Virus record (IMG/VR): IMGVR_UViG_3300032524_000070
From: a virus
DNA: 64,000 nucleotides
Direction: 5' to 3' (one strand)
A model generated the notes under the pieces. The model was given only the letters and a program-made list of their open reading frames with translations. It searched no databases and was not told where the DNA came from. Every line of letters begins with the position of its first letter. Position 1 is the first letter of the stretch. The translations under genes were made by a program, and so were the position numbers. Of this stretch, positions 283 through 30,563 are shown one piece after another.

Positions 283-314
283 CGGTAGTTCTCCTATCAC
301 CTTCGTCAGTTGAA
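283..314 (+). promoter_or_regulatory. Putative phage late promoter (class III) carried by the endonuclease insertion
   Basis: CGGT-AGTTCTC-CTAT-N12-TTGAA, 15 nt upstream of ATG 330. Confidence 0.5.
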
Positions 315-2319: not shown

Positions 2320-2559
2320 ATGGAAGAGGTCCGCCACAAGACGGCGAAGGCGTGGGTCGAGGCCATCGACAAGAGTCACGAGCTGGAGCCCGGCGACGAC
2401 GCCCGGCGGCGATGCCTCGGGTTCTTCGACCACACGGACGAGAAGCACCACATCCTGAGCATCACCCTGGCGAAAGCCACCGGCAAGGCGCTGGGTGATC
2501 AGAGGGAACTCCTGAAGACCCCGGAGGGCCGCGCGAAGCTCATCGAGGGCCGTGCCTGA
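2320..2559 (+). CDS. Hypothetical protein (79 aa)
   Basis: RBS GGAG before the ATG. Its TGA overlaps the ATG of the next gene. Confidence 0.75.
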   Translation: MEEVRHKTAKAWVEAIDKSHELEPGDDARRRCLGFFDHTDEKHHILSITLAKATGKALGDQRELLKTPEGRAKLIEGRA

Positions 2560-2987
2560 TGCCCCTCTACACCTTCCAGTGCGAGTGCGGCGTCCAGTTC
2601 GATGCCCGTGCAGCCATCGCCGACCGGGAGCAGACGAAGCCCTGCCCCGCCTGCCCGGAGCAGGGCAGGCCCATCCCCCCGTCCGGTGTTCACGGTCACT
2701 TCAAGAAGGAGGTGACCGGCCCCGTGCCGCAGAACACGGGCATCCACGACCTCGACACGAAGATCGACCGCGTGATCGGGCAGTCCAGCCACCAGGGCTG
2801 GGAGGTGGCCGAGGGGCGGAAGCGGATGAAGGAGGAAGTCATGCACCGTGAAGGCGTCACGGGCCACGACCTCTCCAAGAATCTCGACGGCTCCTACCGG
2901 GTGCTCAAGCCCGAAGAACGGGGTCTGCATGAACGCAGTCAGGCGATCCACCAGGCTGCGGGCGAGCGCAACAAGCCCAAGGGGTAG
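2559..2987 (+). CDS. FmdB-family zinc-ribbon protein
   Basis: MPLYTFQCECGVQF...PCPACP matches the FmdB MP.Y.(Y/F).C..CG..F...CP.C signature. Confidence 0.8.
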   Translation: MPLYTFQCECGVQFDARAAIADREQTKPCPACPEQGRPIPPSGVHGHFKKEVTGPVPQNTGIHDLDTKIDRVIGQSSHQGWEVAEGRKRMKEEVMHREGVTGHDLSKNLDGSYRVLKPEERGLHERSQAIHQAAGERNKPKG

Positions 2988-2988
2988 T

Positions 2989-3020
2989 CGGTAGTTTGAC
3001 TATCCCGCACGCTTATCAGC
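2989..3020 (+). promoter_or_regulatory. Putative phage late promoter (class III, partial match)
   Basis: CGGT-AGTTTGA-CTAT immediately after the FmdB stop. The downstream GTRR element is not conserved. Confidence 0.45.
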
Positions 3021-3049
3021 GAAGGGCAAGTTCGTAGAACGCGCCTCGG

Positions 3050-3217
3050 CACCTCCTCTCCGCACCGGAGATGGCTAGACGGATCAACGACGGAATGAGC
3101 CACAGCTTGTGCTTCCCCTGATGGGGACCTGCCTCCCGCGCTTCGGCGGGGATGGACACGATGAAGCCACACGGACTGACGCTCGAACCCTGTTGACCCT
3201 TCTCGTGAGGTGCCCTG
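3050..3217 (+). promoter_or_regulatory. Structured 5' leader of the sheath gene with two hairpin + ACGGA-loop units
   Basis: Unit 1 is TCTCCG-cac-CGGAGA then TGGCT...AGCC enclosing two ACGGA. Unit 2 is TCCCGCGC-TTCG-GCGGGGA-TGG...ACGGA. Similar units occur at 17459-17604. Confidence 0.55.
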
Positions 3218-6200
3218 ATGGCTTTCCCCGGTCTGAACTACGCCCCGCCCAACGTCTACACCCGTACCGAGTACGAGAACCCTCTCCAGGGGGCCATCGA
3301 GTCTTTGAAGATCCCGATCTTCATCGGTGAGGGCAACGAGTACCTGTCCCAGGTGGACCTGGAGTGCGTGCGCGGCTCGTCCGCGACCATCGACCAGCGC
3401 ATCGTCGGCGAAGACATGACGGGCCGTGCGGTCGTCAGCGTCTCTGCCACGGGCGTCGTGACGCGGGGTGCCTTCAACGGCGTGCTCAACCGGGTGCAGG
3501 TCCAGAACCTCCCCGTCGTGGACGGCTCCGGTCGGGGCACGACCAGCAACAGCCGCAGCGACGTGACGGTGACCCTGAACGGGCTCCCGGTGGTCGTGAC
3601 GGCCCTGGACGGTGCGGCAGGCATCCTGACCCTCGCGCAGTCCCCGGCTCTGGGCGACCTCCTGCGGGTGAGCTACTACTTCAACCGTGAGGACACGCTC
3701 GTCACGGACGACCTCTCGGAGCAGGTGACCACCCTGGCGGCCCTCATCGAGGCGTCCGTGGGCATCAAGGACGTGAACGCCCCGACGCCGGGCACCACGA
3801 CCATCGACCTGCACGCTGACGTGCTCGGGCCGAGTGGTCAGGTCATCGTCCCGGCGAACAACGTGCTGAACCTGGTCGTGGACGGAACGACGGTCGCGCT
3901 GACGCTGACCCCGAAGACCGACTACACGATGCAGCAGATCTCCAACGTGATCTCGGCTGCGGGCTTCGGGACGTTGACGGGTGCCACCTTCGTCAACAAC
4001 CACGGCGAGAGCACTCTCTCGCTGAACGCCGACCACGACCTGACGGTCCTGGAGGGGACGGCGAACGCCCTGCTGGGGCTGGTCACGGGCTCCGTGAGCA
4101 TCCGCCGGAAGACCTTCTACACGTTCAACGGCCCCATCGTGGACGGCACCAACGGCGGCGTTACGACGACCGACCCGAGCCACGTCGTCGTCAAGGTGGA
4201 CGGCGTGCAGGTCATCCCGACCACCGTGGACGGGGCGACCCGGGCCATCACCCTCGCGCAGGCTCCCGAGGCCGGTTCGACGGTGACGGCGACCTACTGG
4301 TTCAACACCTGGCAGGACACCTACGACCACCTGGCCCACGTGAACGTCACGAGCGTCGAGCGGGTCGGTGATGTCCCCGGCGGCAGCCAGTACACGCAGG
4401 AAGCGGACTTCATCCTCCAGAACGACCGGGTGATGTGGGGCACGGCAGCCTCGGTCGTCAGCGGCATCACGACCACGGGGTCGGAGCTGCTCGACGACAC
4501 GCAGGTCACCCCGACGCTGGTGGACAACCGGACCTTCATGTCCCTCTGCACGCCGGTCACGTCCGCACAGGGCACGGTCAGCACGAGCGACTTCCAGCTC
4601 CCCCTGAGCCCGACGCTGGGCAACGGGCGTTCGACGAGCCTCGGTCAGAGCCTCTTCCAGAGCATCAGCAACAACCGCATCGGCGTCCCGGTGAACCGGC
4701 CCGACGTGGTGGATGTCTACTGGGGCTTCTCGGTGGAAGACGCGCTGGTGCGCGGGCAGGTCGAGGCCATCAAGGTCGAGGGCAGTGTCATCACCCTGCC
4801 GGTGAACGTCCCGGTCGGGGCCAGCGTCTTCGCCAGCTTCTATCACAACATGATCGTGGACATGGAGTACACGCTGGCCGTGGTCCTGCCCGGCATCAGC
4901 GGCGTGGGCACCTACACCATCGCCGACTCCGCAGGCTCCAGCGTCTTCACGCCGACCTTCGACAACAGCACGAAGTCGGCGGGCCTGACGGGCATCGAGA
5001 TCGTCTTCCCGAGCGGCTCCGAGTTGACCCCGGACCTCCACTTCGAGGGAGGTGCCGGGACCGGCTTCACCGGCCCCATCGAAGAGGTCGTCACGGTCAC
5101 CCTCGCGGCGACCCAGGACACCCCGGCGAAGTTCACGGTCTCCGGCCCCTCGCCCTACGTCTTCGTCCCCGGTGAGTCCGACCTCATCGCCATGACGATC
5201 AACGGGGACCTGGTCCTCCCGGTCGCGGGCACCGACATGGACGTGCTCTCCGGCGGTGGTCTGGGCGTCATGGCCCACTTCGTCGGCAACGAGGTGGTCT
5301 ACCCGGACGGCATCGACTTCGACGCGGCTGACTTCGTGAACGGCAACGAGCAGGTCATCCTCACCCTCGACGCGGTGGAGGTCACGGCGACCGTCGAGGC
5401 CGCTGCGAACGTGACCGTGGACGGTTGGGTCGCGGCCATCAACGAGGCGGCTGACGGCCACCAGGGCGTCGCAGGCGCGGGTGCCCCGGCTACCACGACC
5501 TTCGAGCTGGCAGCGGGCAGCCGTTCCGCCGTGGACAACTACTACGCCGGGTGGCGGGTGGTCGTCGGCAGCGGTGCCTTCGCCATCACGGCGGGTTCCA
5601 TCGGTACGGTCGCCAGCTACGTCGGAGCCACGGGCATCATCACCCTGACGGCGGCCATCGCCGGGGCCGCCATCTTCACGGTGGGCGATCCCTACCGCAT
5701 CTACAACCCCGACACGATGGCCGAGGTCAAGGGAGCCACGCGCTTCAACGGTCCCATCGACCTGTCGGGTGGTGCGGGCTTCGACACCCTGACCCTGCGG
5801 TTCAACTGTCTCGCCACGGGGGGTGCGGTGAACATCAGTGCCGGTGTGGCGGCCCTGCACGCATCGGTCACCGCTCTGGCGACGGCCCTCAACACGGCCT
5901 TCCGTGGGGCCTCCGGCAGCGACATCCTGGTCACCCCGGCGGTCGGCTCCCCCATCGCCCTCGCCATCGTCGGTGATGTCCTCCTCTCGGGTCTGGACTT
6001 CATCTTCACGGCGGACGGCGAGGGTCGCCTGACGGTGGTGGTTCAGCTCCCGGGCCTCTCGGCGGCGGGCTTCCTGGAGTTCGTGGCACAGGGCGCAGCG
6101 GTCGATGACCTGGGAATCCTCGCGGGCTTCGACGTGGGCACGGCTGGCAGCGGCCAGATGAAGCTGAACATCGGCGAGGTGGCGAAGAGCTACCGGCTGA

Positions 6201-8527
6201 CTCAGGGCGGCGTGAACGTCCACGACCGGCTCATCCTCCGCAACCGCATCCACCCCGGCGGCTTCTCCATGAGCGCCCTGGATGCGGTCGGTCAGTGCCA
6301 GCTCCTCGTGGGCGCGGGCTCCGGCAACGCCAAGGCGGGTCTGACGAACGCGGACTACGGCGAGGCGGCCCACGGTGCCACGGTCCACGGGGCCACGATG
6401 GTCGGTCGGGTCGGCTTCGCTGGTGGCACGAACACGGCGGGCGAGCCGCAGGTGACCTTCTACGACGGTACGGGGGCACAGCCCGCGAACAACGTCCTGG
6501 CCTTCACCCTCGACGGTGTGCCCTTCAGCGTGACGTTCACCTCGTCCGCCACGGGCACGGTGAACATCCTCGGCATCGCGGCGGTCGCGGGCAACCGGAT
6601 CATCCTCCAGATCCAGACGGCCATGGCTGCTCTGCCGGGCGCTCCGTTCGGCAATCTGGCAACCATCCAGGGCGCGAACATCATCCGCCCCGAGGGTGCG
6701 GGCATCCGCATCACCAGCACGGAGATGCACGAGAGCGGCGTCATCGTCATGGGTGGCGGCTCGGCCAACTCGGTACTCGGCTTCACCGAGGGCATGGTCG
6801 CGGCCCGGCAGCTCGTCACGGCGGGGATGCTGGCGTCGGCCCTGAACTCGCACCGGGAGAACAACATCCCGGACTTCCTGCACGACTTCTCGGCCATCAA
6901 CAGCGCGGCTGCTGAGTTCGCTGCACAGGCCATCGCCAAGGTGGTCGAGGACACGGCTTCACGGAAGTTCCTGCACATCGCCTCGGCGGGTCCGGCCACC
7001 AGCGACTACGGCACCGGCTCCACCATCGCCCTGCTGGCGGCCACGACTCGTTCCTGGCTGTTCGTGGGCACGGGCATCGACGAGCTGAGCAACGCCGGTT
7101 CGGCGGGCGAGGCGGCCCTCAACGGATTCTTCGTCACGTCCTCGGACGGGGTGAACGGGTCGGGTTCGACTGACACCTCGGTCCTCAACGCGGGCACCGG
7201 ACAGGATGGGACCATCGGCCAGACGTACCGCGACGCGGTGACGGGCCTGACGTTCACCATCCTGCCTCGCGGCTGGCACGACAACCCGGCGGGTCCGTGG
7301 AACGCCTACCCGGCGGCGGCGACGTTCCGGTTCGCGGTCAGCTCGACGGTCACGACCGACGCGAACATCCCGGTTCGGTCCATCCCCGGTCTGGAGATGA
7401 AGGTCGCCAACACGGCCGGTGTGGGTGCGGGTGACACGGCCATCGTGCAGACGTTCCCGCGAGGGGGCGAAGAGCCCGCCATCGGGGACATCTACTACGC
7501 GAGCTACGTCTACCAGAAGCAGGATTTCACCACGGCATTCTTCACGAAGATGTCGTCCATCATCGCGGCCTACGGTGCCATCCACCCGGAGAACCCGGTG
7601 TCGCTGGCGGCCTACCTGGCGATGATCAACGGGGCCGTCCTCGTCGGCGTGAAGCAGGTGCCCCGTGCGACCGGGACCAACTTCGCCAGCATCACGACCT
7701 ACGTGGCGGCGGTCACGGAGCTGGAAGGTGTCCTGCCCGGTCACATCGAGCCGGACCTGATCACTCCCCTGCTCGGGACCTCGACGCAGCTCTTCCAGTT
7801 GCTCGCCCGCAGCAACGACATCCAGAGCAGCATCCGCTACCGCAGCGAGCGCACCAGCGTCATCGGGATGGCGGCGGGCTCGACCGAGGCGCAGGCGAAG
7901 ACCCTGGCTGGTGTCCTGTCCAACGACCGGATGCGGGTGGTCTACCCGGACATGGCCCTCATCGACATCGAGGAGGACGACGGGACCAGCAAGGAGCACC
8001 TCATCGACGGCCCGATGCTGGCCGCGATGCTGACCGGCTCCGTGGTCAGCCCGAACTACGACGTGGCCTCCCCCTGGACGCGACGGAAGCTCATCGGGCC
8101 GAGCCAGCTCGGTCGGACGCTCGACGCCGTGCAGCAGAACCAGCTCGCCCAGGCGGGCATCACGGTGCTGGACGACAAGCCCCCCTTCATCCGGGTGCGT
8201 CACGGTCTGACGACCGACATGACCAGCATCCTGACGAAGACGCCGACCGTCCGGCTCATCGCCGACCACGTGCAGCAGCAGAGCCGGTCCACGCTGGACC
8301 AGTTCATCGGGCTGAAGTTCCTGCCCGGCATCCTCTCGCAGGTCGAGGGGCGGCTGGCCAAGATGTTCCAGACGCTCGTGAAGCAGCAGATCATCGCCAT
8401 CTACACCGGCCTCAAGGCTCAGGTGGATGCCGAGGACCCGACGACGGCCAACGTCGAGGCGTACTACCAGCCGGTCTTCCCGCTGCTCTACATCGTCCTG
8501 ACGTTCCATTTGAGGGCCTCCCTCTAG
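3218..8527 (+). CDS. Giant contractile tail sheath protein (1769 aa)
   Basis: N-terminal YAPPNVYTRTE..IPIFIGEG and C-terminal IRVRHGLTT...PTVRLIADHV...FIG.K...AYYQPVFPLLYIVLTF are typical sheath termini. About 1300 aa of beta-rich insertion lie between them. RBS GAGGTG. Confidence 0.9.
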   Translation: MAFPGLNYAPPNVYTRTEYENPLQGAIESLKIPIFIGEGNEYLSQVDLECVRGSSATIDQRIVGEDMTGRAVVSVSATGVVTRGAFNGVLNRVQVQNLPVVDGSGRGTTSNSRSDVTVTLNGLPVVVTALDGAAGILTLAQSPALGDLLRVSYYFNREDTLVTDDLSEQVTTLAALIEASVGIKDVNAPTPGTTTIDLHADVLGPSGQVIVPANNVLNLVVDGTTVALTLTPKTDYTMQQISNVISAAGFGTLTGATFVNNHGESTLSLNADHDLTVLEGTANALLGLVTGSVSIRRKTFYTFNGPIVDGTNGGVTTTDPSHVVVKVDGVQVIPTTVDGATRAITLAQAPEAGSTVTATYWFNTWQDTYDHLAHVNVTSVERVGDVPGGSQYTQEADFILQNDRVMWGTAASVVSGITTTGSELLDDTQVTPTLVDNRTFMSLCTPVTSAQGTVSTSDFQLPLSPTLGNGRSTSLGQSLFQSISNNRIGVPVNRPDVVDVYWGFSVEDALVRGQVEAIKVEGSVITLPVNVPVGASVFASFYHNMIVDMEYTLAVVLPGISGVGTYTIADSAGSSVFTPTFDNSTKSAGLTGIEIVFPSGSELTPDLHFEGGAGTGFTGPIEEVVTVTLAATQDTPAKFTVSGPSPYVFVPGESDLIAMTINGDLVLPVAGTDMDVLSGGGLGVMAHFVGNEVVYPDGIDFDAADFVNGNEQVILTLDAVEVTATVEAAANVTVDGWVAAINEAADGHQGVAGAGAPATTTFELAAGSRSAVDNYYAGWRVVVGSGAFAITAGSIGTVASYVGATGIITLTAAIAGAAIFTVGDPYRIYNPDTMAEVKGATRFNGPIDLSGGAGFDTLTLRFNCLATGGAVNISAGVAALHASVTALATALNTAFRGASGSDILVTPAVGSPIALAIVGDVLLSGLDFIFTADGEGRLTVVVQLPGLSAAGFLEFVAQGAAVDDLGILAGFDVGTAGSGQMKLNIGEVAKSYRLTQGGVNVHDRLILRNRIHPGGFSMSALDAVGQCQLLVGAGSGNAKAGLTNADYGEAAHGATVHGATMVGRVGFAGGTNTAGEPQVTFYDGTGAQPANNVLAFTLDGVPFSVTFTSSATGTVNILGIAAVAGNRIILQIQTAMAALPGAPFGNLATIQGANIIRPEGAGIRITSTEMHESGVIVMGGGSANSVLGFTEGMVAARQLVTAGMLASALNSHRENNIPDFLHDFSAINSAAAEFAAQAIAKVVEDTASRKFLHIASAGPATSDYGTGSTIALLAATTRSWLFVGTGIDELSNAGSAGEAALNGFFVTSSDGVNGSGSTDTSVLNAGTGQDGTIGQTYRDAVTGLTFTILPRGWHDNPAGPWNAYPAAATFRFAVSSTVTTDANIPVRSIPGLEMKVANTAGVGAGDTAIVQTFPRGGEEPAIGDIYYASYVYQKQDFTTAFFTKMSSIIAAYGAIHPENPVSLAAYLAMINGAVLVGVKQVPRATGTNFASITTYVAAVTELEGVLPGHIEPDLITPLLGTSTQLFQLLARSNDIQSSIRYRSERTSVIGMAAGSTEAQAKTLAGVLSNDRMRVVYPDMALIDIEEDDGTSKEHLIDGPMLAAMLTGSVVSPNYDVASPWTRRKLIGPSQLGRTLDAVQQNQLAQAGITVLDDKPPFIRVRHGLTTDMTSILTKTPTVRLIADHVQQQSRSTLDQFIGLKFLPGILSQVEGRLAKMFQTLVKQQIIAIYTGLKAQVDAEDPTTANVEAYYQPVFPLLYIVLTFHLRASL

Positions 8528-12449: not shown

Positions 12450-13385
12450 TCACACTCGGTCCAGGACCGACCCACCAGCGGCGGGCAGCAGGTCGAGGAC
12501 GCGCTCCTCTGCATCGCGGAGCCGTTCCGTCAGTTGCTTGATCTCAGCAGCCTGATTCTCGATCTGCCGCTCAAGCGCACCTTTGGTCTGACGCATATCT
12601 GTGTCGGCGGCGTTCTGCCTGTCCATCGCCTCATGCCACCGCTGCTCTGCGGCTTCGGTCGCCTTGTTGGCAGCCTTGACCTCCAGCTTCATCGAGTCGT
12701 AGTCCACCATTCCAGCCCGGTGCTTATTGGCCTGCTTGCCAGCGAGCTTCACGTCGATACGGGCCTTCCCCTTGGGGAAGTAGTGGCCCCACACCCCATG
12801 GCTGGAGATGATCTTGGCGACATCGGAAGAGCAGAGGGTCAGCCGGGTCTTCTGACCCTCCGATCTCCATTCGTTGTACCAGACCTCAGTGTCAGGCCCC
12901 AGGTAGCTCAAGTTGGGGAACAGGAAGCGAAGCTCCGGCGGCTTGAATACTCCTTCCAGCTTGACGGGCTCCGTCATGTAGGGCCGAACCGAGCAGGAGT
13001 CGCTGTCCCCACACCACCAGTGCCCGCCGTTGTCCTGACGCACACTGGTCAGACTGCCCGGCGAGAGGTGTCCATCAACCGAGTCCTTCGTGCGTCGGGA
13101 GTTCTGCGGGAGTCCGATCTTCGGCAGGTCGAACATCCGGGGGGGCGGCGGCGTGAACTCTCGGGCCTCCCGGAAGTGCTGCTTCTGGGCAGCCGTGAGC
13201 CACAGCTCCTCGACATCGCCCGTGTGGCAGTTGAACAGGGGGTAGCTGACGTAGACATTCAGATCCGCCGACGTGATGTACGTCACCCCTTCCAGGGTGA
13301 CCCGCGACACCACCTTGGCGTAGTGGTGCGTCACTGCAAACATCGAGTCGCCTTGGAATAAGAATGCGCGGGTCTCCTTGTCCAT
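12450..13385 (-). CDS. Hypothetical protein with C-terminal coiled coil (311 aa), predicted leaderless
   Basis: The ATG lies 6 nt downstream of a class II CGTAGT box. The C-terminus is heptad-rich. Confidence 0.75.
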   Translation of the reverse strand: MDKETRAFLFQGDSMFAVTHHYAKVVSRVTLEGVTYITSADLNVYVSYPLFNCHTGDVEELWLTAAQKQHFREAREFTPPPPRMFDLPKIGLPQNSRRTKDSVDGHLSPGSLTSVRQDNGGHWWCGDSDSCSVRPYMTEPVKLEGVFKPPELRFLFPNLSYLGPDTEVWYNEWRSEGQKTRLTLCSSDVAKIISSHGVWGHYFPKGKARIDVKLAGKQANKHRAGMVDYDSMKLEVKAANKATEAAEQRWHEAMDRQNAADTDMRQTKGALERQIENQAAEIKQLTERLRDAEERVLDLLPAAGGSVLDRV

Positions 13386-16478: not shown

Positions 16479-16510
16479 CGCTAGGGCTTCTATACGCCAC
16501 GGGTAGTGAG
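16479..16510 (+). promoter_or_regulatory. Putative phage late promoter (class III) for the tail tube operon
   Basis: CGCT-N7-CTAT-N12-GTGAG. Confidence 0.55.
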
Positions 16511-17412: not shown

Positions 17413-17454
17413 CCGTCCGGGACAAGTAGCCGGGCTGGGTAAGATGTAGACGAC

Positions 17455-17667
17455 CACCTCCCCCATCAGGGGGGATGGTTCATGTGACCACGGAAACAGC
17501 CGGTGGCCCCTCAACGGACCAAACGGACAAATGTGACGACCCCCGCTTGCTCTGTACTCCTCTCCTGCGGGAGATGGCTGGATGTGCTGACGACGGAAAC
17601 GGCCTGATCACGACCGCTTGTTCTGTCCAGAGCCCCCGCTGCTGTTCCCGACAACAACCTGGGGAAC
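17455..17667 (+). promoter_or_regulatory. Structured intergenic leader with two hairpin + ACGGA-loop units and two extra ACGGA
   Basis: TCCCCC-atcag-GGGGGA-TGGTT...CACGGAAAC-AGCC and TCTCC-tgcg-GGAGA-TGGCTG...GACGGAAA-CGGCC, homologous to the sheath leader. Confidence 0.55.
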
Positions 17668-18867
17668 GTGCAGATGCAGATCGACTTCAAAGCTCTGGAG
17701 CAGGCTCTTGCTCCCATCGAGGAGATCGGCCAGGGCGAAGTGACCTTCGAGGCCGCCTCGACCACCATCACCTTGCGCGTTCTACGGCCCGCCGAAGAGG
17801 TGGAGGCACAGAGGTACGCCGCTTCGGTGTTGAAGGACGATGTCGAGGGCGACCACTCTGCGGTGGACTACCTCGACCGCTTCCGTATCGCCTGCCTGTC
17901 CCACTCCGTCGTCGCCATCGGTGACCTGGACTTCCGGGGCCTGGAGTACGTCGAGACCGGCGACAAGCTCCCCAACGGGAGCCCCATCAAGGTCACCAAG
18001 TCGAAGGCGATGCGGACGCTCCTGGCTCGTTGGACTCGGGCCACGCTGACGGTGGTGTACTCGAAGTTCAGTGACCTGACCACCTCGTCGGAGGTGGAGG
18101 CAGAACGCCTCATCGAGTACACGCCTTCGGACCTGTCTGCCGAACTCGACCGGCTCAACAAGCGGGTGGCCGAGATCACGGCGAAGATGGAACAGGAGAA
18201 GATGATCGAGAAGGCGAAGTTCAGCGACCAGGTGGAATCGATCTCCAAGGTCACCACCGACGCCATGAACCGGCCTCCCGCCACACCGGCCATCGCCGCA
18301 CCCGAGCCGGAACCGGAGGTGGACCCGGAACAGGCGTTGCCAGCCGCATCCCGCCGCACCGGCCCCATCAGTCCAACCACTGCCCCGCCCCCGGCCGCCA
18401 GGGAGCCCCGTGCTGCCCAGCCTGCTCCGGCACAGCAGCCGCTCCACCGGACGCCCCCGCCGCGTGCGGACTCGTCGTTCATCAACCCCGATGATGACGA
18501 CGGGATGAACGCTGCTCTCGACGCAGAGCACAACCGCATCCTTGCCATGCGTCGGCAGGCGGCAGCAGGCCAGCCCACTGTGGATGATGCGTCAGCTCTG
18601 GAGCAGATCCACCCGCAGACGGCCCACCGCCGGACGCCACCGCATCTGGAGGCCAAGGAGGCAGAGGATGATGTGGGGGTGCTGGACGCGGCGGCACAGG
18701 CGGCCAAGGAGGTAGGCGAGATCGATGGCAAGCCGGTGTTCGCTCTCCCCGCACAGGACTTGGGGGTGAAGGCCCCTCCCGCTCCGGCTGATGCACGGGC
18801 AGCCATCAACCCCCCGCAGGCATCTGGGTCCGAGAACCCTCGGTTCCAGCGTCGCAAGCAGCCCTGA
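17668..18867 (+). CDS. Putative tail assembly chaperone 1 with Pro/Ala-rich tail
   Basis: Lies between tube and tape measure. The N-domain ITLRVLRPAEE...LSHSVVAIG... is followed by a coiled coil and a disordered C-terminus. Start is GTG 17668 or ATG 17674. Confidence 0.6.
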   Translation: MQMQIDFKALEQALAPIEEIGQGEVTFEAASTTITLRVLRPAEEVEAQRYAASVLKDDVEGDHSAVDYLDRFRIACLSHSVVAIGDLDFRGLEYVETGDKLPNGSPIKVTKSKAMRTLLARWTRATLTVVYSKFSDLTTSSEVEAERLIEYTPSDLSAELDRLNKRVAEITAKMEQEKMIEKAKFSDQVESISKVTTDAMNRPPATPAIAAPEPEPEVDPEQALPAASRRTGPISPTTAPPPAAREPRAAQPAPAQQPLHRTPPPRADSSFINPDDDDGMNAALDAEHNRILAMRRQAAAGQPTVDDASALEQIHPQTAHRRTPPHLEAKEAEDDVGVLDAAAQAAKEVGEIDGKPVFALPAQDLGVKAPPAPADARAAINPPQASGSENPRFQRRKQP

Positions 18868-20085: not shown

Positions 20086-23000
20086 ATGTCCATCAATGAG
20101 GTGATGAACTGGACGGTAGACCTCAAGGCCAACACCACCCAGTTCATGAAGGACCTGAACGATGCCGCCAAGGGCATCAACATCGAGTTCGACAACAAGG
20201 GGTTGGTCAAGAGCTTCGCCGGGGCGCAGGGCGACATCCAGAAGCTCTTGTCGAACACCGTGGCTGCCGGGGCTACAGCGGGGTTCTCCCACGCGAACGT
20301 CAAGGCCCTGAGCAGCAAGATGGAGGTCATCACCGGGGAGATCGAGAAGTCCCTCAAGGACATCTTCAATCTCCAGGTGAAGGGGTCAACGGAAGCCGCG
20401 AAGGTCTGGGGTCAAACCGTCAAGGATGCCCATGCTAAGGCCCTTGAGGGAGAGAAGGCCAAGCTGGAGGGAGCGGAGCGGCGGTTTGCACTGGAGAAGA
20501 AGAACGCCGAGCGGCTCATCAAGCGTCGCCAGTCCGCTCGCCAGGATGCTGACCGTCTGGAGGACCGGAACGCCAGCGAGCGGGCCAAGGACTGGATGGA
20601 GTCCATCGGCGGGTCGGTCGCCAAGCTGAAGAGCGGGGACCTTGCCGGGGTGCTGTCGGGTGCGGGCAAGGGTGCTGCGGCTCGCGGTGTCGGGATGCAG
20701 GACAAGGCGGCTGCGGCGGGCGATGCCGGTGGGATGATGGGCAAGATGGGCGGCCTCATGGCCAAGATCGGCCCCATCATCGCGGGCATCGGTGCGGTCG
20801 TGGCGGGGTTCGCTGCTCTGGCGGCGATAGTGGTGCTGGTGGACGGTGCCGTGAAGGGCCTGAACAAGACCATGATGGATAGCGGGGTGGCTGGTGCGGA
20901 CATGGCCAACCAGTTCAACCAGCTCGGCAACACGATGGACAACATCCGAAAGTCGGCCAAGGGGTCGTTCGGGTTCAACCAGATCTGGGGTGTGTCCGGC
21001 AAGGACCACCTGGAGATCCTCGGGGCCTTCAACGCGGCGGGTCAGACCATCCACGAGATGGGCACCGAGATGGACCGGCTGCGGCAGTACACCCAGGCTG
21101 CGCTGACGTACAGCAAGCTCCTGGGGCTGAGCACTACGGATGTCAGCTCCTCGACGGCGGTCTACATGGAGGAGCTGGGGATGACCCTGGAGGGCGTCTC
21201 TGGCCGCTTCTCCAACATCACGGCGGCGGCCAAGGAGAGCGGCTTCGGGGTCAAGCGATTCTTCAACATGGTGCTCCAGGCCACGTCGGGGATGTCGATG
21301 TACAACGTCCGGCTGGAGGAGGCCGCCGGACTGCTCATCCAGCTTGGGAAGATCCTGGGCGAGAAGATGGGTGGCGACTTCCTTGCGACGTTGATGAAGG
21401 GCTTCAAGGACGAGGGCACGCAGGACCGCATCAAGAAGACGATCTCGACCGGCGTGGAGATGTCATCCCGCGTCCTCCGCAAGGATGCGGTGGCCTCTGC
21501 CGAGGAGTTCCAGCGGAAGCTGACTGAGCTGTCGGACCAGGACTCTGGCAAGGGAGCGGCTGTTGCCGAGATCCTCAGCCGGTACCAGCTCGACCCCACG
21601 GATGCGGAGGGGTTCGCCAAGAAGCTGGGCAAGATGGCCCCTCAAGAGCTGGGGATGATCACTCAGGAGTTGGCAGCACAGGGCGGTCAGGGCGAGGGAA
21701 TGGCTCGCAGCATGACGGACCTCGCCACGAAGGGTCAGGCCTTCCGGGGCGACCTGGCCGGGGCACAGGCGGCCCTCAGCTCTGCCGGGGGTGGGGCGAC
21801 CTTGTTCCTCCAGCTCAATGAAGCCTCGCGGGTGCTCGGCAAGAGCCTGGACCAGATCGATCTCTCGAACATGGAGCAGCGGGCGGCCTTTGAGAGCATC
21901 ACCGGCAAGTCCGGTGAGGCGGCAGAGCAGCTCCGGCGTATGGGCATGGGTCTGCGTGGCAAGTTCGACCTCATCCAGAAGGCCAACGAAGGTGGGACAG
22001 CGGGCCGGGAAGCCTACAACAAGAGTGGCCTGGCGAAGTCGTTCGGGGTGTTCCTCGACGAGCAGGGGAAGATGTACCGGCTGGATGCCGAGAAGAACCG
22101 TGTGGACATCGGGGACAGCCTCGAAGACCTGTTCATCGGCATCGGGAAGGAAACCCTGGGCAACGAGACGGCACAGAAGGCCGAAGACATCCTGCTGGCT
22201 CGGGAGATCGCCAAGAACACCACGGACATCGCCAGCATCCTTGAACGGGGGATCGAGTGGCTGCTGTCCGGCATCTACGACTCAGTGCAGCGGATTTCGG
22301 GGCTCATGGGTGGTCTGAGTGCCGATGAGAAACGGGGGAAGATCGCGGCTCTTGCGACATTGGGCGACGAGAGCACTGCGGCGATGCAGATGGCCCGAGA
22401 AGCAGAGAGTGACATCGCTGATCTCAAGCGGAGTAGGTCGGGTTCCACCCCAGAAAAGCAGGCTGACATCGACATCAAGATCAAGGCACGGGAGGACGAT
22501 CTCATCCGTGCGGAGATGCAGTCGAAGTCGTTGCTCCGACAGACCAGGAAGATTGAAAGGAAGCAGGACGACTGGGGCATCAAGGGCACCGGGACCAAGG
22601 AGTCTCAGTGGTTGGGCTTCGGGAAGGATGACGAATACAAATACATCGAGAAGGACGCCACGGCGCTGATGGGGCAGGAGCGGATGGACGCTGAGTTCAG
22701 AGCCCCCGGAGCCGAACGGGCTCTTGCGAACCCTGACCTCCAGTTCAACCCGAACCACTACGGAGAGGGCATGGCCGCGAAGTTGACGCAGAGAGCAACG
22801 AACAGTCAGGTTGCACTCGACCTCAAGGAGTGGTTGGCAGACCCCGAGGCCACTCGTAGGGCCGATGACCAGCGGGTTCTGAGGCAGACGACGGCAGAGG
22901 AGACCGCGATTTCCACGCAGACCACAGATCTGGTCTCGTCATGGAAGGACTGGCAGAAGGAGATGAGCCTCCAGGAGGTCTCTGCGGTACTGGCCGGGGC

Positions 23001-23406
23001 CGGGATTGAGGGCGACACGGACCAGATGGCCGCGTCGTTGTTGCGGGGGCAAGTCCCCAAGGGCTTGGACCTGGGTGCGAAGACCGCTGGCGGGATGAGC
23101 CTCTACGACAGGTTGTCGGGATCGAACCCCTCGTCTGAAATGGCTCGGGCGTTGTTCAGTGCTGAACAGGGTGGTCCGAGGGCCGAGGACTTCCTCATGC
23201 AGATCGGGACCGGAGGCCGGGTGAAGTTCGCCCAGCGCATCAGTGCCTCCGACACCGTGACCGCTACGGCATCGAAGCCCGGAGGCCCGATCCAGTCGTC
23301 CGGTCGGAAGGGCTCCGGGGGCTCGACCGTCGTGATCAACAGCTTCGGCAACGCTGCCGAGGTCGTGCGTGGCATCCAGGCAGCCGTGGCGGCGGGGGTC
23401 GTGTAA
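20086..23406 (+). CDS. Tail tape measure protein (1106 aa)
   Basis: Long helical A/G/K/E-rich protein with a hydrophobic stretch IGPIIAGIGAVVAGFAALAAIVVLV, in the canonical position. Confidence 0.8.
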   Translation: MSINEVMNWTVDLKANTTQFMKDLNDAAKGINIEFDNKGLVKSFAGAQGDIQKLLSNTVAAGATAGFSHANVKALSSKMEVITGEIEKSLKDIFNLQVKGSTEAAKVWGQTVKDAHAKALEGEKAKLEGAERRFALEKKNAERLIKRRQSARQDADRLEDRNASERAKDWMESIGGSVAKLKSGDLAGVLSGAGKGAAARGVGMQDKAAAAGDAGGMMGKMGGLMAKIGPIIAGIGAVVAGFAALAAIVVLVDGAVKGLNKTMMDSGVAGADMANQFNQLGNTMDNIRKSAKGSFGFNQIWGVSGKDHLEILGAFNAAGQTIHEMGTEMDRLRQYTQAALTYSKLLGLSTTDVSSSTAVYMEELGMTLEGVSGRFSNITAAAKESGFGVKRFFNMVLQATSGMSMYNVRLEEAAGLLIQLGKILGEKMGGDFLATLMKGFKDEGTQDRIKKTISTGVEMSSRVLRKDAVASAEEFQRKLTELSDQDSGKGAAVAEILSRYQLDPTDAEGFAKKLGKMAPQELGMITQELAAQGGQGEGMARSMTDLATKGQAFRGDLAGAQAALSSAGGGATLFLQLNEASRVLGKSLDQIDLSNMEQRAAFESITGKSGEAAEQLRRMGMGLRGKFDLIQKANEGGTAGREAYNKSGLAKSFGVFLDEQGKMYRLDAEKNRVDIGDSLEDLFIGIGKETLGNETAQKAEDILLAREIAKNTTDIASILERGIEWLLSGIYDSVQRISGLMGGLSADEKRGKIAALATLGDESTAAMQMAREAESDIADLKRSRSGSTPEKQADIDIKIKAREDDLIRAEMQSKSLLRQTRKIERKQDDWGIKGTGTKESQWLGFGKDDEYKYIEKDATALMGQERMDAEFRAPGAERALANPDLQFNPNHYGEGMAAKLTQRATNSQVALDLKEWLADPEATRRADDQRVLRQTTAEETAISTQTTDLVSSWKDWQKEMSLQEVSAVLAGAGIEGDTDQMAASLLRGQVPKGLDLGAKTAGGMSLYDRLSGSNPSSEMARALFSAEQGGPRAEDFLMQIGTGGRVKFAQRISASDTVTATASKPGGPIQSSGRKGSGGSTVVINSFGNAAEVVRGIQAAVAAGVV

Positions 23407-25406: not shown

Positions 25407-28400
25407 ATGGGTCTCGAATCACGGCCATACGTCGGCACCTGGCGGCTCAACGGGCGGCAGCTCATCCAGCACACGCCCGATGCGCTGGTCTACGTCAACG
25501 GGGAGACCTCGCTTCCGGGCTGCTCCAAGTGCAGTGGTCGCATCGACATCCAGCGATTCTTGACCGAGGTGTCGGTGGACGCGGGGACGGAGCCGGGTTC
25601 GGCCTCTGCCAGCTTCTCGCTCGCCATCCCGCGACACCACAACGAGTCGTTCGCGCGGGACGCGAAGTTCCTGCTCAGGCCCGGCCTCGAAATCCACGTC
25701 TACATGCGGGGCTACTTCCCCGTGGCTGGCCTCTACAAGAACCTGGCCGAGGGCAAGGTGAAGAACGAGATCACGTCGCTGGGGGACGTGACACCGGCCC
25801 AGATCGAAGCAGAGCAGCTCCCTGACCCCACCTCCCCCGGCACCTACGGGGCGGACGACGTGCTCGGTGGGGCGACGGTGGATGCCCCCACGCGGGCCAA
25901 CGCCGAGGTCACGGCAGCGATGATGAACACGCTGGAGCCGTACCTCCAGCAGCAGTACCCCGGAGCGAAGCTCTCCGTGAACTCTGGCTACGAGGCATCG
26001 GGTCACTCAGAGGACAGCCAGCACTACCAGGGCAGCGCGGTGGACATCACGGCCACTTCGGACGCAGGCCCGATCTCGTCCACGGACATCTGGCAGTCGG
26101 TCGAGAAGCTCCGTGGGACGGGCCACCTTCCACGGGGAGGCACGGGTGCCTACGTCTCGGGCGGGAGCACCCCGGAGAATCCGCTCTACCGGAACTACGT
26201 CCACATGGACCACCGGGGCGGGAGAGCCTTCTGGGTCTACGACCAGACCACCCAGGAGAGCGTCGCCAACCCCAACGCATACCTGCGGGTGCTCAAGGCC
26301 GGGGTTGGAGGTCTCGTAGAGCCGGACAGCACCGTGCGGGCCTACGACGCTGCGGTAGTCCCTCCGGCCCTTGCTCCACCCGCGACGACAGCGGGAATCC
26401 AGGAGCCGGTGACTCTGGCGACCACAGCTCAGGTGGGGCCTTCCCTGCTGGAAGAGCAGGGGCTCGCCGGGCTGGGCATCGAGGACACGCTGGCCTATCC
26501 GTACTACCACGTGTTCCACGGGGTCGTTACGGAGGTGAGCCACAGTGCTTCGGGTGGGGTGGGCACCATCTCGGTGAGCTGCTCGTCGATGCTCCACTTC
26601 TGGCAGTACCAGAACATGAGCACCAACGCCTCGCTGTTCGGGGCGAGGCCCACGAACTCGAAGCTCAAAATGAGCCTCGTCGGCCACAACTTCACGGGGA
26701 TGCACCCCTACCAGATCATGTACACGCTGCATCACGACATGGTGGGGGCAGCGGGCGGGGTCGGCTGGGCACTCGCCAACAGGACCCACCAGACGGCCGT
26801 GAGCGAGGTGGGCGGCGAGTCCCTGTACTCGCTCAACATCCGGTACTGGCAGAAGCGGTTCTCCGGCAGGACCATCCGGCTGCGGATGCACGGGGCCACG
26901 GGCGACCTGTTCAGCACGATGGCTGCCGCCTGGCTGGGCCGCACGTCGTCGTCGAGCATCATGTCCTTGATGCGGAAGCGGTACAGCACGTCGAAGCCTA
27001 GTGCGGTCAAGGGTGTGCTGGAGCGGGTCGGGCTCTACAACAGGAACAAGCGGGCAGCTCTGGATGCTCTGGAGGCCCTGGAGTTCGCAGACCAGAGCCA
27101 CGGGGGGAATGCCGCGAACAAGCCCGACTTCGGGATCAACATCGTCGAGATGCAGGCGTTCGTGTCGAACATCGGCAACTGGGGCCAGGTCAACCTCTTC
27201 GAGTCGTCCTACGAGAGCAAGCTGGACGTGGCCCAGAAGGTCATGGAGATCACCGGCTTCGAGTTCTATCAGGACGTGGACGGTGACTTCGTATTCAAGC
27301 CGCCGATGTGGAACCTCGACACGAGCGGGAGCCGCGTCTACCGCATCGAAGACATCGACATCATCAACATTGGCTACTCGGAGAAGGAGCCACAGGTCAC
27401 CTACATGACCTGCAAGGGCAGCCAGTTCAAGAACATCCAGGGCACGGGGGCTGAGAACGAGTGGGGCGTCCGGGGGCAGTACATCGACTACCGGCTGGTC
27501 GCGCAGTTCGGCTGGCGTCCGGGCAGCTACGAGACGGCCTACTTCAACGACTCCAAGAGCATGTTCTTCAGTGCGGTCAACCGCATGGACGTGATGAACA
27601 TCGGCATCAACTCGGCCAACGTGACCATCCCGGTGCGGCCGGAGATCCGCCCCGGCTTCCCCGTCTACGTCGTCTACATGGACGCCTTCTACTACTGCAA
27701 CAGCTTCGCCCACAGCCACGCAGTCGGCGGGCAATGCACCACAAGCCTCCAGCTCGTCGGCAAGCGGGCGAAGTTCTATCCACCGGGTCGCCCTGGCTCC
27801 GGGGGCTCCGGGTTCCTGGCCGACGTGGACCTGGGCAACACCATCCTGCCGCAGCGACCCATCCAGGTGCTCTCCCCTGACGGGACTCCGAGACTCTCCG
27901 GGTTCCCGAACGTGGTCATGGCCCTCGACCCCACGGCCATCAACCCGTTGTTCTTCGTCGTCGGCAACGACATGGCGGACATCAGCGACGTGCGGGTCAT
28001 CAAGTACCTGCTGAAGTTCGGGGTGGGGTCGGGCGTACTCAGTGAGCCAGAGGCACTGGAGAATGGTGGCCAGGTCTACACGATGACCACGGGCTCGAAG
28101 ACCGGGGCGGGTGAGGACACTCAGCCCATCACCGTCCGCTTCTACTTCCAGGAGGACGACTTCGAGGGCACGGCCTCGGTGCCCAGCAGCGGTCCTGACG
28201 ATGCGGAGAAGCCGTTCAACATCATCGCGGAGGCCATCAACTACGAGCGGCTGGTAGCCGAGGCCACGGCCGCGCAGGAGAACGACCAGGAGGCGGTAGA
28301 CCGCATCAAGTACGACATCATCAGCAAGCAGTCGGAGATGGCCAACCTGCAACAGTCGGCGGACAGCAACACCCCTGCCGTGCAGGTCAAGATCGAGGCG

Positions 28401-30563
28401 CTGTCGGCTGAAGTGGCGACGTTGGAGCAGAAGCTCCGGGACAAGGTTGCTCAGTTCAATCAGGCGAAAGACGCCCTTCAGGAGAGCTGGAAGGACCCCA
28501 GCAACGCCAAGGGTCGTGGCGTCGCGTTCCTGTTGGAGATGCTCGACCAGGTGGGTGCCGCCTACCGGACATCCGACAACTTCCAGGGGCGGGGTGACCT
28601 CGGCAGCTCGACCGCCCTGCTCGACATGCTCTCCGACAAGAAGGCCATCTTCTCCAACGGGTCACAGCCGGGCAGCTACCGCTACTACTCGGCCTCGCAC
28701 CCGGACAAGGAGCACCAGGGACCGAGCGTCATCGAGTATGACTCGGCGGCGAAGGGCAAGACCAAGGAGTCGAACCCAGCCCCCATCGACGGCACCGTGC
28801 CCACCATCAAGATGTTCTCGCCCCACCCCACGGCCCCGTTCCCCGGAGCCATCGTCCCGGAAGCGGAGCTGGTGGACGGTCAGCCGGAGGTCGGCATCAG
28901 GGTGCTGGACGGCAGCGGGAAGGAAGGTGGGGCGTCCTACGCCACCAGCGACATCATGGAGCTGATGTTCTCCGTGCAGGTCGTCACGGTGGTCAAGAGC
29001 GTCACCACGAACTTCCGCACCACCAACATCGGCAGCCTCGGCCCGGCGGCTCGTGCTCAGATCGGGGTGAAGCTCGCCCCCACGGCATCCGTACTGCCGA
29101 CGCAGAGCCTCACGGATGTCCTGGGGCCGCAGTGGAGCGATCTGCGAATCCCGATCACGGCAGCCATCGCGGCGATGAAGGTGAAGGCCGATGCAGGTGG
29201 TTGGAAGATCGGGACCTCTGTGGCCCCGGTCTTCCCGTTGTTCATCAACCTCTGGGCGGCTCTTGTGGACACCACGAAGCCTCTGTCGAGCTTCGCCTAC
29301 GCCGACAACCCTGATGGGGCAACCAGCCTGGGTCAGGCGGGGCTCAAGGCGACGCAGGACCAGCTCATTACCAAGGCCGCAGGGGCACTCGCGGGCAAGT
29401 TCTATGGGGGTCTGGAGGCCATCCGTCGTGCCGCCGCCACAGCCCTCAAGGAGTCCGGTGCTACGGGGCCGCAGTCGGATGAAGTGATCGGCGTGTTCAA
29501 CACCGCTCTCGGGGCGGTCATCGGAACGTCGGTCGCTCCGAGCAACACCCGCAAGGGTCGGGAGACGCAGCGGAAGACAACGACGACCTCCAGCCCGGTC
29601 TTCCCGGTGTCGGACGCCCGTGGCTACGAGGTCATCGGGTCGTACCGCTATGGCCGCGAGGTGAGCATCGAGCCGGAGGGGGTGTTCGATCAGCTCCACA
29701 AGACCGACCTGTTCAGCTTGCTCGACAAGAACCTGGTGGAGCAGATCCTTCGGTCCTACGTCCAGGGGCAGAAGATTGCCACTCCGGCGATGGAGACGGT
29801 TCAGGTCGGGGACAAGACGGTGACCCGCCCCGTAGGCAACGGTGAGATGAAGGTCCAGAGCGGAGCTGCCACCTCCCGCTACCTCAACGATGAGGTGGTC
29901 AGGCAGCTCAGATCGAAGAACCTGACCGACAAGCAGATCCTCGACTACGGCTTCCTCCTGGAGGGCGGGGAGTCGAACCAACTCCAATTCTCGCTGGCCA
30001 ACATCTTCGCGGAGCAGAACCTCGACGGCATCCAGAAGATTCCGGTCATCAACGCGGCCTACTCGCTCGCCGACATGAACCTCCAGCAGGCCGGTCACAT
30101 CTGCGACTGCAAGGCCGCAGAGGCGGACGTTCACATCCTTGCCTTCGGTCAGGAGCAGTTCCTCTCGTTCACGCAGGAGGGCAGCCCGGCCCATGAGGGC
30201 CTGGGGATGGACTCGGCGGACGCAGGCACCCGATGGGTGGCCATGACGGCGGCACAGGCGTCCGTGTCGTGGCAGCAGCAGCAGGAGGCCCTGCGGGGTC
30301 AGGTGCTCGACCGGGGCGGGAGCCACATCGTCAAGCAGATCGTGGAGACGTTCGGCATTGACACAGGGCCGAGCGGCAACGATTTCACGGAGTCCCTCGG
30401 CATCGAAGGTCTGGAGCCCGGCATCAGGACGAGCGTGTTCGAGAAGACCAACGCAGAGGCACAGCACAACTTCACGGACGAGGATGGACCTCTTCAGGAG
30501 GCCATCCGGGAGGCAGAGCAGAACGGCCTCAACCTGACGACGCCGCCAGGGGGTGACCAGTGA
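25407..30563 (+). CDS. Baseplate hub (gp27/gpD-like) with inserted peptidase M15 domain (1718 aa)
   Basis: Hub motifs ASFSL...LRPGLEIHVYMRG, VFHGVVTEVS, SKLDVA...GFEFYQDVDGDFVFKPP and RPEIRPGFPV. M15 motif SGY.....SQHYQGSAVDI...YVHMDHRG. Confidence 0.8.
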   Translation: MGLESRPYVGTWRLNGRQLIQHTPDALVYVNGETSLPGCSKCSGRIDIQRFLTEVSVDAGTEPGSASASFSLAIPRHHNESFARDAKFLLRPGLEIHVYMRGYFPVAGLYKNLAEGKVKNEITSLGDVTPAQIEAEQLPDPTSPGTYGADDVLGGATVDAPTRANAEVTAAMMNTLEPYLQQQYPGAKLSVNSGYEASGHSEDSQHYQGSAVDITATSDAGPISSTDIWQSVEKLRGTGHLPRGGTGAYVSGGSTPENPLYRNYVHMDHRGGRAFWVYDQTTQESVANPNAYLRVLKAGVGGLVEPDSTVRAYDAAVVPPALAPPATTAGIQEPVTLATTAQVGPSLLEEQGLAGLGIEDTLAYPYYHVFHGVVTEVSHSASGGVGTISVSCSSMLHFWQYQNMSTNASLFGARPTNSKLKMSLVGHNFTGMHPYQIMYTLHHDMVGAAGGVGWALANRTHQTAVSEVGGESLYSLNIRYWQKRFSGRTIRLRMHGATGDLFSTMAAAWLGRTSSSSIMSLMRKRYSTSKPSAVKGVLERVGLYNRNKRAALDALEALEFADQSHGGNAANKPDFGINIVEMQAFVSNIGNWGQVNLFESSYESKLDVAQKVMEITGFEFYQDVDGDFVFKPPMWNLDTSGSRVYRIEDIDIINIGYSEKEPQVTYMTCKGSQFKNIQGTGAENEWGVRGQYIDYRLVAQFGWRPGSYETAYFNDSKSMFFSAVNRMDVMNIGINSANVTIPVRPEIRPGFPVYVVYMDAFYYCNSFAHSHAVGGQCTTSLQLVGKRAKFYPPGRPGSGGSGFLADVDLGNTILPQRPIQVLSPDGTPRLSGFPNVVMALDPTAINPLFFVVGNDMADISDVRVIKYLLKFGVGSGVLSEPEALENGGQVYTMTTGSKTGAGEDTQPITVRFYFQEDDFEGTASVPSSGPDDAEKPFNIIAEAINYERLVAEATAAQENDQEAVDRIKYDIISKQSEMANLQQSADSNTPAVQVKIEALSAEVATLEQKLRDKVAQFNQAKDALQESWKDPSNAKGRGVAFLLEMLDQVGAAYRTSDNFQGRGDLGSSTALLDMLSDKKAIFSNGSQPGSYRYYSASHPDKEHQGPSVIEYDSAAKGKTKESNPAPIDGTVPTIKMFSPHPTAPFPGAIVPEAELVDGQPEVGIRVLDGSGKEGGASYATSDIMELMFSVQVVTVVKSVTTNFRTTNIGSLGPAARAQIGVKLAPTASVLPTQSLTDVLGPQWSDLRIPITAAIAAMKVKADAGGWKIGTSVAPVFPLFINLWAALVDTTKPLSSFAYADNPDGATSLGQAGLKATQDQLITKAAGALAGKFYGGLEAIRRAAATALKESGATGPQSDEVIGVFNTALGAVIGTSVAPSNTRKGRETQRKTTTTSSPVFPVSDARGYEVIGSYRYGREVSIEPEGVFDQLHKTDLFSLLDKNLVEQILRSYVQGQKIATPAMETVQVGDKTVTRPVGNGEMKVQSGAATSRYLNDEVVRQLRSKNLTDKQILDYGFLLEGGESNQLQFSLANIFAEQNLDGIQKIPVINAAYSLADMNLQQAGHICDCKAAEADVHILAFGQEQFLSFTQEGSPAHEGLGMDSADAGTRWVAMTAAQASVSWQQQQEALRGQVLDRGGSHIVKQIVETFGIDTGPSGNDFTESLGIEGLEPGIRTSVFEKTNAEAQHNFTDEDGPLQEAIREAEQNGLNLTTPPGGDQ

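Follow-up and report, generated by a model that had tools for sequence, protein, structure and literature searches.

A predicted structured leader RNA upstream of the tail sheath gene in uncultivated huge myoviruses

The 230-nt spacer that precedes the tail sheath gene in this viral DNA, together with a diverged relative of it farther along the same strand, appears to represent a family of structured leader RNAs, from a clade of uncultivated huge myoviruses, that has not been described before. The spacer is conserved in related phages, its hairpins covary and its modules are repeated. In addition, the ribosome-binding sites (RBSs) that serve the sheath gene and the gene at 17674 are each base-paired in a conserved helix, which the first-pass annotation of this DNA had not noted; because both RBSs are paired in this way, a translational role is plausible. 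We read the sheath leader as a new cis-acting translational operator for a putative RNA-binding factor and hold this reading with about even confidence.

Conservation and covariation of the sheath leader

The window, which is the whole 64,000-nt stretch of DNA that was analyzed, corresponds to bases 32008-96007 of a 132.8-kb IMG/VR virus record (G000; CheckV completeness ~25%, G+C ~65%) and differs from that record at 15 single bases, with two short clusters, none of them in either leader. The sheath label is right because the last ~340 residues of the product (1421-1764) match the tail-sheath family PHROG 2839 (E 1e-22). The preceding ORF stops at 2987 and the genes upstream of the leader abut or overlap, so the gap of 230 nt before the sheath ATG stands out. 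A leader of this length in a tightly packed operon had been described in the first-pass annotation, and the gap was confirmed at 2988-3217 with all of the motifs named there at the positions given for them (Table 1). The phage nucleotide database held no match to this DNA, and the GTDB genomes searched contained no relative of the sheath, so no host was identified from them.

Table 1. Coordinates of the leader elements and neighboring features (window numbering unless marked; SD, Shine-Dalgarno sequence; % paired, share of alignment cells forming standard pairs)
Feature	Position	Strand	Sequence or remark
Zn-ribbon protein gene	2559-2987	+	142 aa; directly upstream of leader
Late-promoter-like box	2992-3006	+	TAGTTTGACTATCCC (also written TAGTTTGACTATCC); directly after upstream stop codon
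Box copies, window	286-300, 2992-3006, 16482-16496	+
Further box copies, record G000	4111, 8269, 14699, 26637, 32293, 48489	+
Sheath leader RNA, as matched by model R1	3017-3220	+	E 1e-47
P1 hairpin	3024-3046	+	GGGC/GCCU outer, GUUC/GAAC inner; 94.9% paired
Anti-SD arm	3048-3055	+	GGCACCUC; pairs with 3207-3214
P2 hairpin	3055-3074	+	CCUCUCCG-cac-CGGAGA(U)GG; A-U-G-G end, bulged U; 96.2% paired
P2 motif read from the sequence	3057-3062, 3063-3065, 3066-3071	+	TCTCCG, cac, CGGAGA
Word-flanking motif read from the sequence	3072-3076, 3098-3102	+	TGGCT and AGCCA, flanking ACGGA at 3079 and 3090
Unit-1 word region	3075-3104	+	AGACGGAU, CGACGGAA, AUGAG; optional weak stem 3072-3076/3098-3102
Box 1	3105-3113	+	GCUUGUGCU; family consensus GYUYGNRCY; CT.G..CT invariant or nearly so in 15 leaders
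P3 hairpin	3114-3127	+	UCCCC-ugau-GGGGA; 86.7% paired; 4/5 pairs changed on both sides
P4 hairpin	3132-3155	+	cUUCGg cap, end GGGGA(U)GG; 92.5% paired
Second-unit motifs read from the sequence	3132-3155, 3152, 3171	+	UUCG-capped hairpin, ATGGA, ACGGA
Unit-2 word region and box 2	3156-3189	+	CGAUGA, CACGGAC; box 2 GCUCGAACC at 3181-3189
SD and spacer	3207-3217	+	GAGGUG; 3' helix arm GAGGUGCC at 3207-3214; GAGGTGCC invariant in 15 leaders
Sheath gene	3218-8527	+	ATG at 3218; 1769-aa product
Putative sigma-70-type -10-like element, leader 2	17437-17445	+	GGGTAAGAT
Leader 2	17452-17673	+	Diverged relative; precedes gene at 17674
Leader 2, unit A	17457-17553	+	Hairpin CCTCCCCC/GGGGGGATGG at 17457-17478, three ACGGA, box GCUUGCUCU at 17545-17553
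Leader 2, unit B hairpin	17559-17577	+	CCTCTCC/GGAGATGG
Leader 2, unit B	17559-17624	+	Stem GGCU/GGCC at 17576-17579/17601-17604, GACGACGGAA, box GCUUGUUCU at 17616-17624
Hairpin enclosing SD (GGGGAA) and spacer of gene 17674	17639-17673	+	11 pairs; 90.9% paired; 6 phages
Reduced unit copy	G000:C1:8269-8324 (window -23738 to -23683)	+	Before 83-aa DUF5659 gene
Differences between window and record G000	4767, 13335-13361, 31897-32399

Using the first 500 sheath residues as query, 32 viral and 34 metagenomic loci of 38-93% identity were retrieved. The spacer upstream of the sheath is clearly homologous in the high-GC relatives, and homologous leaders precede the sheath gene in 19 related phage contigs. 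Fifteen distinct sheath leaders were aligned (alignment A4), and the RNAalifold consensus comprises 30 pairs in five helices, with 93.8% of cells forming standard pairs versus 32-62% when the 3' partners were slid, and 14 pairs altered on both sides versus 2-7 in the slid controls. None of 500 shuffles reached the observed pairing values. Each of P1 to P4 carries compensatory changes, so the covariation on which the first-pass annotation had made its proposed RNA depend is present in related phages. It is comparative evidence that carries the structure, since the minimum free energy of the single sequences is no better than that of shuffles (whole-leader z of -0.9 for the sheath leader and -0.1 for the second). 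Four A[CT]GGA words in 230 nt, at a plus-strand density of 2.2 per kb, give a Poisson p of ~0.002 by our own arithmetic; conservation and covariation in relatives are far stronger evidence than this count.

The covariance model R1, built from the same alignment (206 positions, 30 pairs), matches 17 other loci with E-values of 1e-23 to 1e-47, a distant high-GC relative (L099) at E 1e-7, and two further loci, L015 at E 5e-11 and L062 at E 7e-4. Indels among the aligned leaders are not multiples of three, so a conserved ORF on either strand is excluded. A pattern scan of viral contigs returned 28 loci; among those not already known as relatives, three were true leaders (L079, L088, and L099) and the rest were chance matches in coding sequence. 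Rfam 15 at gathering thresholds, a search that the earlier annotation had proposed, matched no family in the 64-kb window and gave only noise around the leader (E 3-7), and no published description of such a leader element was found in the literature searched.

In two of the relatives, the sheath start codon is the exact insertion point of a 247-aa GIY-YIG/I-TevI-like homing endonuclease ORF (L012:2254-2997, the same in L046). The RBS and ATG of the leader serve the endonuclease there, while the sheath starts at an overlapping TAAATG; both contigs keep the leader in full, 740 nt upstream of the sheath.

Repeated units and a second leader

Variation within the hairpins follows their pairing. 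Pair 11-29 of P1 occurs as CG (six), UA (four), GU (one), or UG (one), pair 139-155 of P4 as CG (six), UA (six), or UG (three), and four of the seven P2 pairs have changed on both sides. P2 and P4 are built alike, with a CCUCYCC arm and a GGRGA(U)GG arm in which the U is bulged and the final GG pairs with the initial CC; the AUGG end is present in 17 of the 18 distinct P2 versions and in 13 of the 17 for P4. The sheath leader contains two repeats of one unit, in which a bulged-U hairpin with a pyrimidine and a purine arm is followed by predicted single-stranded (A)GAYGGA(C) words and these by a GYUYGNRCY box. Box 1 recurs in both units of leader 2 and reads UUUGAGCU/CUUGAGCU in low-GC relatives, and in unit 2 the group as a whole keeps both CGATG and G(C/T)T(C/T)GAACC.

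Counted over the junctions of 17 leaders, GAUGG appears 28 times (6.8 expected) and AUGGA 19 times (5.4 expected); shared descent accounts for part of the surplus. The enrichment of GGA-type words, on which the first-pass annotation had focused, was upheld in this comparison, but the top word is GAUGG/AUGG rather than GGA. Some relatives carry tandem word arrays (ACAGAUGG four times in L062, AGACGGAC repeats in L099). The claim that the ACGGA words sit in a loop closed by TGGCT/AGCC found weak support: the stem is 67% paired versus 20-49% when slid, and 39-46 of 500 shuffles score as high. Such a word-enclosing stem is weak in the sheath leader and better supported in unit B of leader 2.

A number of candidate signals were rejected. 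A generic hairpin descriptor (CC-helix-A-U/C-GG) yields 12 hits on the plus and 9 on the minus strand versus 4-11 in shuffles, while the polypyrimidine version of the hairpin has five copies, all on the plus strand; short-motif scans for the GYUYGNRCY box and GACGACGGAA were noisy. Mimicry of the 16S 3' end by GGCACCUCCU and GGGGACCUGCC was dropped as not colinear, as were the GYUYGNRCY box as a -35 element (no -10 follows the box) and small uORFs starting from AUGG (no frame is conserved).

The recurrence of this architecture 14 kb away, previously placed at 17459-17604, is real: it extends over 17457-17604 and comprises two hairpins and a GGCT/GGCC stem. The sheath model R1 aligns the first hairpin of this leader to P2 and picks leader 2 as its next-best match in four of five genomes (G000, G001, G002, and G004; E 9e-4 to 0.07) as well as in L079 (E 6e-4) and L087 (E 8e-4), so the two leaders are related, which bears out the shared element proposed earlier. 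Leader 2 contains four ACGGA words, and helices 7 and 8 of its unit B are 97-100% paired with one pair each changed on both sides. Five other phages have kept the 255-nt spacer that leads up to the gene at 17674; its fold is 95.1% paired versus 39-52% when slid, with six changes on both sides versus 0-3, and the evidence, from six sequences only, points to the predicted structure less strongly than for the sheath leader. In the hairpin that encloses the SD of this gene, no pair has changed on both sides in the six phages.

The product of the gene at 17674 has given weak leads only, toward a tail-assembly chaperone (atlas score 0.87). Two genes on, a 1106-aa protein (20086-23406) has a sub-threshold match to PhageMin_Tail (minor-tail/tape-measure). 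Residues 167-290 of a 1718-aa protein (25407-30563) resemble an endolysin. As far as such matches suggest, these two genes and the one at 17674 look like a tube-chaperone-tape-measure block, split from the sheath by a 7-kb minus-strand island.

A reduced copy of the unit lies elsewhere in the record. It consists of a CTATAG promoter-like box, GCUUGAACU (also GAGCUUGAACU), and a 19-mer hairpin identical to that at 17559-17577, of which the purine arm doubles as SD. A terminator-like hairpin (GCCCGTGGAC...GTCCACGGGC) precedes this copy.

Pairing of the ribosome-binding site and its possible roles

The two arms of the long-range anti-SD:SD helix can form 6-11 bp in 18 leaders (-13 to -24 kcal/mol) and are mostly invariant apart from two independent compensatory changes, one to GACACC:GGUGUC in L012/L046 (G-C to A-U) and one to UUGGCACC:GGUGCCAG in L006 (G-C to U-A). 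The 5' arm is mutated in L048, where an alternative AGCACC lies just upstream, and the helix is not evident in low-GC relatives. By partition function, the unpaired probability of the SD is <=0.01 in 13 of 19 leaders versus ~0.25 with the upstream sequence shuffled. When accessibility over -15 to +3 is compared across 23 gene starts, the sheath and chaperone RBSs do not stand out in this GC-rich genome, so conservation and compensation, rather than energy, carry the case for occlusion. The SD and start region of the sheath gene thus pairs in a conserved helix that compensation maintains, and the folded leader is predicted to hide the sheath RBS.

Transcription of the sheath leader may begin from the box at 2992-3006, which is kept as GTTAGTTnnnCTAT in the leaders of relatives. 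The box in its general form, TAGTTnnnCTAT(A/C), has further copies, all of them on the plus strand and 45-220 nt ahead of a gene start. A raw count of the pattern shows no enrichment (~5 expected per strand), so the promoter case rests on position, strand, and phylogenetic conservation, and we infer from these a candidate late promoter of the phage clade. The same pattern is uninformative in the distant complete genome G007 at its low GC. The -10-like element of leader 2 reads TAAGAT, TAGGAT, or TACGAT in five of six relatives, with T1, A2, and T6 kept and position 3 varying, and the sixth (L038) has no TANNNT at this place. Variation of this kind is what a sigma-70-type -10 element shows, so leader 2 may have its own host-type promoter, in which case hairpin 2A would form the extreme 5' end of the transcript.

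In our proposal, the 230-nt gap would be the 5' untranslated leader of the sheath mRNA, with a transcript that probably starts a few bases past the 2992-3006 box. It would fold into the four local hairpins P1 to P4, with the whole domain closed by the long-range anti-SD:SD helix, and in this folded state the sheath RBS would be occluded. The repeated hairpin-word-box units could then serve as a binding platform for a putative sequence-specific factor from phage or host, and its binding would open or lock the occluding helix, setting the timing and amount of sheath and of the tail-chaperone/tape-measure protein set. Retention of the leader despite the endonuclease insertion in L012/L046 is telling in favor of an operator. 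The large demand for sheath sits oddly with an RBS that is off by default and counts against one. The first-pass annotation had proposed a shared translational operator, bound by CsrA or another protein, that co-ordinates sheath and chaperone output; the shared structured cis-acting RNA stands and the translational role is plausible, while the CsrA part was not borne out.

Each of the rivals, a stabilizer, an antitermination RNA, or a riboswitch, explains fewer of the conserved features. An mRNA stabilizer or processing element, with 5' hairpins and a closed domain that block 5'-end-dependent RNases or mark RNase cleavage and with no dedicated regulator, is unlikely. In its favor, P1 and hairpin 2A would lie no more than ~10 nt from where the transcripts are inferred to start, the hairpins have caps (e.g., UUCG) and a high GC content, the element stands before long or highly expressed late messages, and a partner protein was not found. 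However, such an element needs only a terminal hairpin, and it leaves unexplained the AUGG ends, the conserved words and boxes, the unit duplication, and the compensatory upkeep of the anti-SD:SD helix. A 5'-proximal stabilizing role may also combine with that of an operator.

The CsrA-specific reading, in which host CsrA/RsmA dimers bind A(N)GGA to repress or time translation, or the leaders titrate CsrA as a sponge, is in our view improbable. The words themselves suggested it: four A[CU]GGA per leader versus ~0.5 expected, several A(N)GGA sites 6-30 nt apart as would suit a CsrA dimer, the AUGGA enrichment in the junctions described above, and frequent GGAUG in the leaders, GGAUG being the flavor of CsrB repeats. 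Other properties of the leaders speak against it. No A(N)GGA lies in the SD regions of the sheath leader (GUGAGGUGCCCUGAUG, 3205-3220) or of leader 2 (RBS GGGGAACGUGCAGAUG), and the A(N)GGA words fall in junctions rather than in the loops of the conserved short hairpins, the sole candidate stem being the weak one in leader 1. The best-conserved word is GAUG(G), including GAUGC and GAUGA forms that lack GGA. GGA also decays in the low-GC homologs, where the words have drifted to arrays of GAUGAA, ACGAA, or ACAGA and some clusters are without GGA, while the high-GC group keeps many. A search for a csrA homolog, in which the positive controls scored, found PF02599 neither in the record G000 (133 kb) nor in five relatives, of which one is a complete genome of 427 kb. 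The RbpA-like fold of the neighboring protein described below and the TANNNT -10 hint, as a weak lead, at an actinobacterial host; to our knowledge, actinobacteria lack CsrA. For the sponge suggested in the first-pass annotation, the motif count was the sole support.

The gene directly upstream of the leader encodes a Zn-ribbon protein with an invariant CxC...CPxC followed by a VTGPxPQNTGI..LD.HIDRVIGQS motif, and all relatives, even at 25% identity, have it ahead of leader and sheath. Its structural model (pLDDT 74.6) comprises a zinc ribbon, a disordered linker, and two helices. Foldseek returned non-significant matches only, the best to the RNAP-binding actinobacterial RbpA (E 0.04-0.3); the PHROG label is "FmdB-like transcriptional regulator," no PDB sequence matched, and the atlas matches were viral hypothetical proteins only. 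On the fold match we take it as a lead toward a transcription factor rather than a Com-like RNA binder and claim neither. Ribosomal protein S21 was not found in the protein searches.

This neighbor, with its weak RbpA match and its PHROG label, would fit a put- or nut/EAR-type processive antitermination RNA, whose hairpins make RNAP read through both the sheath gene (5 kb) and the tail operon (46 kb), as would the promoter-proximal place at the head of long operons and the two hairpin units per site. We nevertheless regard this as very improbable. Terminator-like sites in 1-20 kb are no commoner than in shuffles, with none on the plus strand in the sheath gene or in the part of the post-leader-2 operon within these 20 kb; the leader regions themselves (2988-3217 and 17413-17673) contain no terminator-like site and no hairpin with a following U run. 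The likenesses of GCUUGCUCUGU to boxA (UGCUCUUUA) and of GUAGNAGCGA to ops were dropped by eye, as critical positions vary among homologs, and Rfam, the source of the put/nut sequence models available, gave no match in the window. Antitermination also leaves the RBS pairing unexplained, and the RbpA match is non-significant. A riboswitch, with a small-molecule aptamer in a multi-helix junction, is highly improbable: an SD-containing closing helix, a multi-way junction, and conserved junction nucleotides are present, but junction lengths vary (J2/3 39-47 nt), words are repeated instead of occupying set positions, the leaders carry the unit in duplicated and shuffled form, and Rfam gave no match.

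Comparison with known systems

Beyond T4, lambda, and Mu, almost nothing has been explored of how late structural genes are controlled post-transcriptionally, and nothing at all in the huge phages known only from metagenomes. The leader is a concrete and well-delimited RNA with a covariance model, two predicted ways of occluding an RBS, and a repeated code, and its synthesis and testing need no phage culture. Its words and hairpins are a ready bait for a dedicated binding protein, if one exists, and R1 can serve to annotate related metagenomic contigs for tail modules and late transcripts.

With CsrA/RsmA-controlled leaders and the CsrB/RsmZ sponges, the RNAs described here share several A(N)GGA in a 5' leader, a GGAUG flavor, and a proposed effect on translation initiation. 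They differ in having no site at the SD, words outside the conserved hairpin loops, and a GGA that is not conserved.

[quoted passage not shown] Here too a Zn-ribbon gene lies directly upstream of a structured leader, in all relatives. Unlike Com, however, its product has no sequence or Pfam relation to that protein, and its best fold match is to RbpA and weak, so the analogy with Mu is one of position.

The MS2 coat cistron combines a stable inhibitory RBS structure with flanking single-stranded RNA that could hold the 30S subunit on standby (PMC5934652). An inhibitory RBS structure is likewise combined with single-stranded RNA in the predicted leader fold, but the single-stranded parts are conserved words inside a closed domain and not an unstructured 5' tail.

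In principle, the closest described cases are the T4 genes e, soc, 49, and I-TevI, in which the SD and/or AUG are sequestered intramolecularly, limiting 30S binding, and a late promoter inside the structure yields late transcripts without the 5' arm (PMC3014915). The SD lies in an intramolecular helix in the sheath leader as well. In contrast to these genes, the candidate promoter at 2992-3006 lies upstream of the anti-SD arm, which would leave the structure complete in a late transcript.

In architecture, the autogenous translational operator of T4 gene 32 comes closest among those described: a structured nucleation element is followed by repeated single-stranded words toward the RBS, and binding by a protein controls translation (PMC3014915). 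A structured element with repeated words in a phage leader is common to both. The sheath leader, however, has bulged-U hairpins instead of a pseudoknot and G-rich GAYGGA instead of UUAAA words, its RBS is also closed by a long-range helix, and the regulated genes would be tail genes.

A more specific version of our proposal, which we consider rather unlikely, is that the repeated unit is the operator of a novel RNA-binding regulator of huge phages that couples the state of tail assembly to translation of sheath and chaperone/tape-measure proteins. Such a system would parallel, in phages, the FliW-CsrA-flagellin homeostatic loop, although both the protein and the RNA code would differ.
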